Below, in pieces: positions 21,124 through 22,259 of a stretch of 64,000 bases of DNA. The stretch comes from a phage. Numbering within the stretch: the first letter of the stretch is position 1; every line of letters begins with the position of its first letter. Location of the stretch: sequence record PV874203.1, one strand, 5' to 3'. The position numbers and the translations under genes were made by a program. Below the pieces are notes generated by a model, which was given only the letters and a program-made list of their open reading frames with translations, had not been told where the DNA came from and ran no database searches.

Positions 21124-21764
21124 GTTATCAGTCCTTGAAGTTCTTCTTTATCGAAATGCTTTTCTACTACATATTCATACAGATCTTTTAACTCTGCATA
21201 ACGTCGGTAGAAAGTTCCATGTGACATGCCAATAGTTTTCTGAATGTGATCATGAGGAATACCCAAGAAAATCATTGAGAACATATTGGCTAACTTCTGA
21301 GTATCCATCGTATCACTTAAATCTTGGAAGAAGTAGAAGATACGAGACTCCATGAATGGGTCACCAACAGAGTCTTGCTTATCCATGGCAAGCTCTAAAG
21401 GACTATCCACCATATCAGGGGTACGGAACATATCAGCCTCTGGAATGGAGTAGATACGACGGTCCCCTACAGTCTGCCTATTTGATCGTATAGACCAGAT
21501 AATGTTCTTGACTCGATAAGTCATATGCTCTTGGTCTTTCTCGTCCTCTAGGACTCTCTCATCCTGCTTAGCGAAGACAAATCTCCAAGCGTTCAAGAGC
21601 ACTTCCTGTGCCACATCTTCTGCTTCATGGTAATCTCTGATATCGTACATGAAGAACTTGTGAACCACTTTCCAGTTCTCTTTGTAAAACTCTTCATAGT
21701 TTGCGATATATTTAATAGGAATTCCGTGAATGCGATATCTTGTAGGTGTTGTCTTCTTCGCCAT
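21120..21764 (-). CDS. sigma-70-family-like transcription factor (phage sigma factor candidate)
   Basis: [16 protein letters not shown] resembles sigma region 2.2; C-terminal [21 protein letters not shown] resembles a region 4 HTH. Confidence 0.5.
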
Positions 21765-22024
21765 TATTCTATTCCACGCTCTTTCAGAGCTTCTAACAAT
21801 CCATTGTGATTAGCAGCACATTCTGTGTACTGGTCCTGATACCACTCCAACGTAGTGGCTAGTGCCTTTCCTTGAGCACTCTCTAAAAGAGGTAGGTCAA
21901 CCCTACACTCAGCTTTTAGGTTTGTTGGTAAGGGCATTGATTGCCTGCTGTTGTCGCTCATTGAACAGGCTGACAAACTCATCGCTAGCGCAGACATTAT
22001 AAAAAACTGGTTTAGTTGTCTCAT
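21764..22024 (-). CDS. o-spanin (Rz1-like outer-membrane lipoprotein)
   Basis: Internal start [20 protein letters not shown] gives a signal peptide with lipobox; starts inside the i-spanin gene in another frame and extends past its stop. Confidence 0.5.
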
Positions 22025-22259
22025 AATGCATCTCTTTATAAACAGTTTCCGTGTTCTTCTTCCAGTTAGATAAACTGGTAAGAACTCTCTGAGCAACTTC
22101 ATCAGCTGCTCTATTTCTTTCAATCTCTAACTCTTGTTGATGCTTTTCTTTATCCAGATTGTTACTGTCTGTTCTGTACTCATTAAACTTCATACCACCA
22201 AAGAATACAAGAGCTGAGAAAACGATAAACCCTAAGTTATCACTTAACGTGTTTTGCAT
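21909..22259 (-). CDS. i-spanin (Rz-like)
   Basis: N-terminal TM helix (LGFIVFSALVFFGG) followed by charged coiled-coil-like region; overlapped by the lipoprotein ORF. Confidence 0.55.
   Translation of the reverse strand: MQNTLSDNLGFIVFSALVFFGGMKFNEYRTDSNNLDKEKHQQELEIERNRAADEVAQRVLTSLSNWKKNTETVYKEMHYETTKPVFYNVCASDEFVSLFNERQQQAINALTNKPKS

Follow-up and report, generated by a model that had tools for sequence, protein, structure and literature searches.

The 64,000-nucleotide stretch of phage DNA in sequence record PV874203.1 (hereafter the window, numbered from its first letter) contains two overlapping minus-strand genes, at 21909..22259 and 21764..22024, which very probably encode the two-component spanin of a phiEco32-like Kuravirus and act in lysis in the manner set out below. 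The 2.2 kb around the spanin locus is ~95% identical to approximately 100 Escherichia and Shigella phages, and these matching Kuravirus genomes include phiEco32, SU10, NJ01 and Paul. A preliminary description of this DNA had proposed that a two-component spanin of the overlapped Rz/Rz1 type lies far away from the endolysin gene. This proposal is supported and its coordinates for the pair are exact; the minus strand of both genes had been left unstated. As judged from sequence, the features of the pair fit the overlapped class of two-component spanins as defined by Kongari et al. 2018 (PMC6139136). The assignment draws on gene structure, a signal peptide with a lipobox, conservation, constraint on both reading frames and family membership, each of which was established here.

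The inner-membrane spanin (i-spanin) gene (21909..22259, minus strand) encodes a 116-residue protein that starts MQNTLSDNLGFIVFSALVFFGGMK and is the orthologue of phiEco32 gp39. The protein matches PHROG 1152, named 'Rz-like spanin', with an E-value of 1.7e-36. Its parts are ordered as an N-terminal membrane anchor (approximately residues 8–23), a long helix, a linker containing Cys90 and a second helix. The sole hydrophobic segment of the protein, GFIVFSALVFFGGM, spans residues 5–23 and reaches a hydropathy (KD19) maximum of 1.55, and the record of phage Paul gives a TMpred membrane segment at residues 8–23 of a 96%-identical orthologue. For such a single N-terminal segment, the definition of the spanin class would imply an N-in/C-out orientation. 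An AlphaFold (AF2) model based on 18 homologues, with a predicted local distance difference test (pLDDT) score of 67, contains helices at residues 3–82 and 93–111 separated by a ten-residue linker. The modelled arrangement, in which a membrane helix runs into a long helix followed by a linker and a second helix, matches the layout of Rz. Cys90 in the linker is invariant in 18/18 homologues, down to 44% identity. The preliminary description had further called this a coiled-coil protein, a label that finds no support: the 96%-identical phiEco32 orthologue, whose periplasmic domain is 61% helical by Jpred, has no coiled coil according to Pepcoil (Kongari Table S3, PMC6139136), and the window protein is nonetheless helical in the AF2 model. 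More than 120 accepted i-spanins are likewise without a coiled-coil prediction of the Pepcoil type (Kongari et al. 2018, PMC6139136).

The outer-membrane spanin (o-spanin) gene (21764..22024, minus strand) encodes an 86-residue precursor and a 67-residue mature lipoprotein, and is the orthologue of phiEco32 gp38 if the correct start is used. The signal peptide comprises the 19 residues preceding Cys20 and has Arg2, an uncharged h-region, the lipobox LSAC and Ser at position +2. The mature protein begins Cys-Ser-Met, with no Asp at +2. Under the Lol sorting rule, lipoproteins that have no Asp at +2 are delivered to the outer membrane, and the Ser at +2 implies that the o-spanin should be sorted there. 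The signal was evaluated using a PROSITE PS51257-type rule (Lys or Arg close to the N-terminus, six residues without charge, and a lipobox, with Cys within positions 15–35), applied in all six frames of the window to open reading frames (ORFs) with ATG starts and at least 40 residues. The o-spanin ORF passes this rule with Cys20, and just one other locus in the window passes. This second match, at 46878 (268 residues), has Asp and Glu inside the supposed signal region and was treated as a chance match. Because the o-spanin ORF is the sole convincing lipobox match in the six-frame scan, the pair is not a chance pattern. The preliminary description had left the lipoprotein signal to formal prediction; in addition to the rule passed here, the phage Paul o-spanin (95% identical, 86 residues; annotated by the Center for Phage Technology) has a LipoP score of 18.03 for SpII, with the cleavage site at 19/20. 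The o-spanin also matches the unnamed family PHROG 2425 (E 3.2e-26) and, weakly, the spanin family PHROG 456 (0.003). The mature protein has only 3 prolines and is not proline-rich, and in the Jpred column of the Kongari tables the mature o-spanin is ~46% helical (PMC6139136). The Kuravirus group and the relative L011 share its two further cysteines, C41 and C69, which are periplasmic.

The o-spanin start is located 235 nt downstream of the i-spanin start, which places it in the +1 frame; the two genes overlap by 116 nt, and the o-spanin gene continues for 145 nt beyond the i-spanin stop. These coordinates confirm the overlapped architecture described earlier, in which a lipoprotein ORF begins out of frame within the i-spanin gene and runs past its stop. 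The dual-frame region (21909..22024, minus strand, 116 nt) encodes residues 79–116 of the i-spanin together with the signal peptide and first mature residues of the o-spanin. In principle the 86-residue frame could be a chance ORF, with only a shorter RefSeq product (phi32_38), or none, being made from this locus. RefSeq phiEco32 and several GenBank records annotate either nothing or only a 174-nt gene whose 57-residue product starts at an internal Met (MPLPTNLK..., no signal peptide), and the ribosome-binding site before the 86-residue start is weak (AAGAG, 6-nt spacer), both of which are consistent with that explanation. However, gene callers are known to systematically miss or mis-start overlapped o-spanins, with 196 unidentified and 64 assigned wrong starts (Kongari et al. 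2018, PMC6139136). Furthermore, the segment from Met1 to Cys20, with its signal and lipobox, is conserved in all relatives, even where i-spanin identity falls to 49%, and in SU7 and EK010, whose spanin genes are split by an HNH gene, a new lipobox signal peptide has been re-created before the same mature sequence. A chance ORF at this position is therefore extremely improbable.

Conservation was examined using the locus from nine relatives, with i-spanin identities ranging from 96% to 49%. A same-frame ORF of ~86 residues, with a basic N-terminus, a hydrophobic core and the motif [LM]S[AS]C at positions 17–20, is kept in all nine, and the relatives carrying this lipobox ORF (Cys at approximately position 20) include a metagenomic relative of 49% identity, a Felix O1-like phage and a Proteus phage. 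Mean pairwise nucleotide diversity was determined by region and codon position. In the segment encoding the i-spanin only, diversity is 0.246 and is concentrated at third positions of the i-frame (0.366). The segment encoding the o-spanin only has the same diversity (0.246), with values of 0.221/0.074/0.439 at o-frame positions 1/2/3. Diversity in the shared 116 nt is 0.124, half that of the flanks, and the changes that do occur sit at i-frame third positions, which are o-frame second positions, where they produce hydrophobic swaps in the signal peptide (A/V, L/M, S/T). Swaps of this kind are tolerated by signal peptides. On this comparative evidence, both frames are protein-coding genes under purifying selection, since the lipobox ORF is kept in all relatives and the diversity follows codon position in each frame.

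These features suggest how the pair would function. The N-terminal segment of the i-spanin would reside in the inner membrane, with its mostly helical domain projecting into the periplasm, while the o-spanin would leave the cytoplasm, receive its lipid on Cys20 and end up in the inner leaflet of the outer membrane. If the pair behaves like lambda Rz/Rz1, the C-terminal parts of both proteins would bind to form a complex that spans the periplasm. This complex is probably stabilized by disulfides and would be restrained by the peptidoglycan meshwork. Cysteines are available in both partners (Cys90 in the i-spanin, C41 and C69 in the o-spanin), and periplasmic cysteines for intermolecular disulfides have been proposed to be universal in spanins (Kongari et al., PMC6139136). 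At the end of infection, the holin (2191..2409) would permeabilize the inner membrane, allowing the cytoplasmic GH24 endolysin (2439..2930) to degrade the wall. The freed spanin complexes would then fuse or disrupt the inner and outer membranes, completing lysis. The membrane-fusion mechanism and the disulfides, like the read-through transcription and the timing considered next, are what we infer from gene structure and family membership.

The spanin genes are located in a transcription unit of the middle region. The first gene of this unit is the homologue of phiEco32 gene 40 (22319..23065, minus strand), which encodes a 248-residue protein (PHROG 6599, E 7e-119). Upstream of this gene, at 23126..23134 (minus strand), the promoter element recognized by the phage sigma factor gp36 of phiEco32, TAATGTATA, occurs without mismatch; in phiEco32 itself, experimental mapping has placed a gp36-dependent promoter ahead of gene 40, and the consensus is published (PMC8948821). 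It is probable that the promoter at 23126..23134 drives the operon containing the spanins. An intrinsic-terminator-like hairpin (22273..22297, minus strand; AGCCACC-TTCG-GGTGGCT followed by T7) lies between the gene-40 homologue and the i-spanin gene, and a terminator is annotated at the same place before the i-spanin gene in phage Paul. This GC-rich hairpin, with its UUCG loop, ends 13 nt before the i-spanin ATG, a distance that leaves no room for a separate promoter. Consequently, the spanins and the sigma factor gene are probably expressed by partial read-through of the hairpin, at a level below that of gene 40 and earlier than the holin and endolysin. The sigma factor gene in question (21120..21764, minus strand), of the extracytoplasmic function (ECF) type, is a gp36 orthologue (98% identical) positioned directly downstream of the o-spanin gene, whose stop overlaps the sigma factor ATG (TAATG). 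Early expression of the spanins would be harmless, since spanin complexes are inert until the wall is degraded, as established for lambda. Additionally, the TAATGTATA element (23134..23126, minus strand) and TTATGTATA (23116..23124, plus strand) belong to one near-palindrome, and a second exact copy of the gp36 element, on the plus strand at 23187..23195, is directed away from the minus-strand genes.

The location of the pair in the middle block, far from the holin-endolysin cassette, and its probable expression before the late genes could also be accommodated if the lipoprotein were of the superinfection-exclusion or receptor-blocking type, similar to T5 Llp and phi80 Cor, with the membrane-anchored helical protein upstream being an unrelated partner. 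The mature o-spanin, partly helical and not proline-rich, is unlike lambda Rz1, which is compatible with such a role. However, an anchored protein with a lipoprotein starting in another frame inside its 3' end is kept across Kuravirus, Felix O1-like phages, 9NA and Proteus siphophages, and in several phages the pair lies within a classical lysis cassette, as in Proteus phage PM-CJR, where the order is holin, hydrolase, i-spanin, o-spanin. Furthermore, the window contains no other spanin candidate, yet the host to be lysed is Gram-negative, and periplasmic cysteines are conserved in both partners. An exclusion lipoprotein is consequently very unlikely.

Several points weigh against the assignment of the pair as a spanin acting in lysis. 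Neither protein is recognized by any Pfam or NCBIfam model, with PHROGs alone recognizing them. Lysis genes do not usually lie among middle genes and behind a terminator, and transcription by the route presented above is inferred. The negative Pepcoil result for the phiEco32 i-spanin means that a lambda-style coiled-coil mechanism may not hold in detail. To our knowledge, no member of the family (the JH2 i-spanins and the NJ01 o-spanin group of Kongari et al.) has been genetically tested, so that function is assigned from architecture and family membership, and no experiment on this spanin family was found in the literature searched.

The spanins of phiEco32 were catalogued in 2018 as an overlapped pair, with the i-spanin in family 'JH2' and the o-spanin in the group NJ01/ECBP2/KBNP1711/PhiEco32 (Kongari et al., PMC6139136). 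Table S4 of that work lists the phiEco32 i-spanin at 35417-35768 and the o-spanin at 35272-35533 with an overlap of 116 nt, and an 86-residue o-spanin with a signal peptide is given for NJ01 (PMC6139136). The pair, its overlapped architecture and the exact extent of the overlap are thus already on record, and are correct in several GenBank records. The spanin pair of the window is an ordinary, previously catalogued family member, and the observation made in the preliminary description is correct but not new. Its practical value is in annotation, as RefSeq phiEco32 and many Kuravirus records start the o-spanin at the internal Met (57 residues) or omit it, and the 86-residue start is the one to use. 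Orthologous pairs with 92–97% protein identity are found in phiEco32 (gp39/gp38), NJ01, ECBP2, KBNP1711, Paul, IMEP8 and EK5, and these share with the window the gene lengths (351 nt and 261 nt), the 116-nt overlap, the strand and the neighbors. The window differs from most of these relatives in having a canonical LSAC lipobox in place of MSAC. In contrast to phiEco32, the window has no macro-domain gene gp37, so that its o-spanin stop overlaps the start of the sigma factor gene, and the window ORF of 86 residues differs from the RefSeq gp38, which starts at the internal Met.

Comparison with better-known spanins places the pair within a familiar range of architectures. Similar to lambda Rz/Rz1, the window encodes a type II helical inner-membrane protein and an outer-membrane lipoprotein in the +1 frame, with cysteines in both partners and a presumed role in disrupting the outer membrane after the holin and endolysin have acted. 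In contrast to lambda, where Rz1 is fully embedded in Rz, the o-spanin of the window overlaps the i-spanin gene and then passes its stop, and its mature form is longer (67 residues, predicted to be partly helical, with 3 prolines) than that of lambda (40 residues). Also unlike lambda, the pair has no match to the Pfam Rz model, no Pepcoil coiled coil (in the phiEco32 orthologue) and a location outside the lysis cassette. The P2 spanin LysB/LysC, which has been tested experimentally, is also of the overlapped type and has its o-spanin in the +1 frame, as in the window (Kongari et al., PMC6139136), but belongs to a different sequence family and has its genes inside the lysis cassette. The Felix O1-type (Felixounavirus) i-spanin is of the same family as that of the window (~31% identity), and the pair is likewise overlapped, by 107 nt. 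The Felix O1-type signal peptide, MKKLSQSFIMFVLLIIMSGC, is strikingly similar to that of the window o-spanin, whereas the mature o-spanin is largely different and is placed in another o-spanin family by Kongari et al. (PMC6139136).

The sister genus Suseptimavirus has a separated pair, the i-spanin and o-spanin genes being split by an HNH endonuclease gene (SU7 931..1992 and EK010 931..1992 of the compared loci). Some 50 nt of the former overlap flank the HNH insert on either side, and the SU7 o-spanin has acquired a new signal peptide, MLTKKKQKSCLVIFLASSLMAC, whose coding sequence covers the 3' end of the HNH gene. This split parallels the case of T5 versus Shivani and phiR201, in which overlapped spanins were made separate by a GIY-YIG homing endonuclease gene (Kongari et al., PMC6139136); the Suseptimavirus insert is HNH instead of GIY-YIG, and the window keeps the intact overlapped form.

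An observation on the published catalogue concerns how reading frames are listed. The 'Frame' column of Kongari Table S4 corresponds to the o-spanin low coordinate minus the i-spanin low coordinate, modulo 3, with strand ignored, as checked for 9/9 minus-strand rows. Homologous pairs of identical geometry accordingly carry frame 1 if they lie on the plus strand and frame 2 if they lie on the minus strand (epsilon34 versus CUS-3; FSL_SP-012 versus FSL_SP-010). The phiEco32 pair is listed as frame 2 and is actually +1, and minus-strand T5-like pairs are listed as 1, with a start-to-start distance of 380 nt that corresponds to the -1 frame. The count of 116 o-spanins in the -1 frame given by Kongari et al. 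may be largely a strand artefact.

The remaining lysis genes of the window are located elsewhere, and the dispersal of lysis functions put forward in the preliminary description is borne out. A holin gene that had been overlooked is present at 2191..2409 (plus strand), 30 nt upstream of the GH24 gene. It encodes a 72-residue orthologue of phiEco32 gp16 with one hydrophobic segment (residues 11–29, KD19 2.15) and matches PHROG 11161, 'holin', with an E-value of 2.8e-50; a holin is also annotated in phiEco32 (gp16), SU10 and YF01. The N-terminus of the protein, MKMMK (window 2191..2205), resembles the dual-start motif of lambda S, in which holin and antiholin are produced from alternative Met codons, and Gly, Ala, Ser and Thr are abundant in the hydrophobic segment. 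A possible gp36-type promoter before the holin gene (TAATATATA, 2170..2178, one mismatch) was rejected. This candidate overlaps the ribosome-binding site, one-mismatch matches are no more common than chance (25 found versus 20 expected), and gene 16 is not in the published promoter list (PMC8948821).

The GH24 (T4-type) lysozyme (2439..2930, plus strand) is the counterpart of phiEco32 gp17 and matches Pfam PF00959 (110.8 bits) and the endolysin family PHROG 7. As described previously, it lies far from the spanins in the structural block, 18.8 kb away and between tail genes. The catalytic pattern E25-x8-D34-x5-T40 can be read from the sequence; Glu-x8-Asp-x5-Thr is the catalytic pattern of the T4, P22 and P21 lysozymes. 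The protein has no signal or signal-anchor-release (SAR) segment (KD19 maximum 0.95). The 'SAR-endolysin' label applied in MT129653 (MN03) and MT129655 (MN05) is unsupported, as the N-terminus, MDNVALPPVQLNLSPAGMEFIM, stays at that KD19 maximum and has no basic N-terminal residue. The preliminary description had considered the GH24 enzyme to be either the endolysin or virion-associated. Of these two roles, the first is upheld and the second is disfavored: given the holin gene directly upstream, the GH24 protein is, as read from the gene arrangement, the endolysin of a holin-endolysin cassette in the late operon (phiEco32 gp16/gp17), and SU10 CDS14 (holin) and CDS15 (lysozyme) were not detected in the mass-spectrometry proteome of concentrated SU10 phage, where the flanking tail proteins CDS12, 13, 16, 17 and 18 were found with 40–75% coverage.

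Wall digestion at entry is assigned, from homology, to a third protein that the preliminary description had not listed among its cell-wall enzymes. This is the SLT-domain internal virion (ejection) protein at 8831..9613 (plus strand; Pfam PF01464, 83.3 bits), a positional match to SU10_020. SU10 gp20, its counterpart, was detected by mass spectrometry in SU10 phage and is an ejection protein described as possessing a transglycosylase activity that degrades peptidoglycan (PMC9509320). The SLT ejection protein has already been published, as has the presence of a holin-endolysin cassette among the tail genes, and together with the overlooked holin these data largely supersede the earlier suggestions regarding the GH24 and SleB-like enzymes.

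The SleB/Hydrolase_2-like enzyme noted earlier at 57428..57817 (minus strand) is above the Pfam threshold. This SleB/CwlJ-type gene encodes a 129-residue protein with no signal peptide, corresponding to phiEco32 gp117, and residues 13–114 match PF07486 with 33.9 bits against a cut-off of 27 (E 5.3e-08). All database homologues of the protein carry PF07486, and the same domain is found in phage Paul by InterProScan. The protein is conserved in all Kuraviruses with 85–99% identity, which raises the question of why all of these phages keep a second, predicted muralytic enzyme of the Hydrolase_2 type in the early region. More distantly, tblastn reveals 31–35% identity to the annotated endolysins of 7-11 (gp111), GAP52, Privateer and relatives, and SaPh711_gp111 is paired with phi32_117 in a published homologue table (PMC8948821).

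This relationship bears on which of the two enzymes is the main endolysin. The genomes of 7-11, GAP52 and Privateer are without holin and GH24 genes, and the Hydrolase_2 homologue is their only annotated endolysin, so that the Hydrolase_2 protein could be the main endolysin here as well, with the GH24 enzyme being accessory. In addition, Glu9 in the motif IY.EAG, a putative catalytic residue, is invariant in all homologues, including 7-11 gp111. This residue presumably aligns with the region of the catalytic Glu of SleB/CwlJ. Against this, the GH24 gene is paired with a holin gene in the late operon and has an intact E-x8-D-x5-T pattern, whereas the Hydrolase_2 gene is in the early region behind a strong terminator. 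That terminator-like hairpin (57873..57892, minus strand) lies just upstream of the Hydrolase_2 gene, and the annotations of phage Paul and 7-11 have a terminator in the corresponding position. Furthermore, the Pfam score is modest, the AF2 model from a 12-sequence alignment (pLDDT 48.9) is too poor to judge the fold, and phmmer and profile searches of PDB sequences with the Hydrolase_2 protein gave chance matches only. It is thus unlikely that the Hydrolase_2 protein has the main role, and the GH24 protein remains the preferred endolysin.

The role in entry or superinfection previously suggested for the SleB-like enzyme is also unlikely, because the protein has no signal peptide and is not in the SU10 phage-particle proteome list; it is, in addition, a homologue of the 7-11 endolysin gp111. 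An ancestral or back-up endolysin appears more likely than an entry or superinfection function, to judge from homology. A broader and rather doubtful idea is that Kuraviruses hold two generations of endolysin, with the Hydrolase_2 enzyme derived from an ancestor shared with 7-11-like phages and the holin-GH24 cassette inserted later among the tail genes, the old enzyme being kept in ~100 genomes for a distinct job. If this were so, the same holin might release the Hydrolase_2 enzyme as a back-up or bond-complementary lysin; alternatively, the enzyme might have a non-lytic regulatory role such as that known for T7 lysozyme.

It can also be noted that the Hydrolase_2 gene and the spanin pair are each positioned just downstream of a strong GC-rich hairpin terminator, with ~48 nt and 13 nt to the respective starts. 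As this spacing is too short for a recognizable promoter, the arrangement suggests that both hairpin-fronted units are expressed by read-through or RNA processing.

Adjacent to the Hydrolase_2 gene is a gene (56932..57228, minus strand) for a 98-residue membrane protein, phiEco32 gp116, in which a membrane segment at the N-terminus is followed by a helical, charged tail. The preliminary description had called this neighbor a membrane coiled-coil protein, and its hydrophobic segment is strong (KD19 2.17 at residues 5–23). A second spanin pair at 56932..57228 was considered and rejected, as the protein has no similarity to the i-spanin and no lipobox ORF occurs there in any frame; the ILLC of an embedded 44-residue ORF is not a lipobox. 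The name 'DNA helicase' carried by this protein (PHROG 12154, RefSeq phi32_116) is implausible for 98 residues and is very probably a propagated annotation error.

The overall layout of the window is that of its relatives. Late (virion and lysis) genes occupy the plus strand up to ~17.8 kb and are followed by middle and early genes on the minus strand, the same late/middle/early layout having been published for phiEco32 (PMC9965538; PMC8948821). Relative to phiEco32, the segment 19600..22100 has no counterpart of gp37, the macro-domain (Appr-1-p processing) gene that separates the o-spanin and sigma factor genes in that phage; gp35 (GTP-binding) is missing entirely, and the deoxynucleoside monophosphate (dNMP) kinase gene gp34 lacks its first 88 codons. 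In this comparison, no database phage matched the 2.2-kb stretch in one piece. The 19600..22100 region is a hotspot of gene gain and loss, which includes HNH genes in SU10 and KM01. Finally, a lone tRNA-Arg gene (anticodon TCT) is located among the early genes at 53399..53474 (minus strand), as has been reported for other Kuraviruses.

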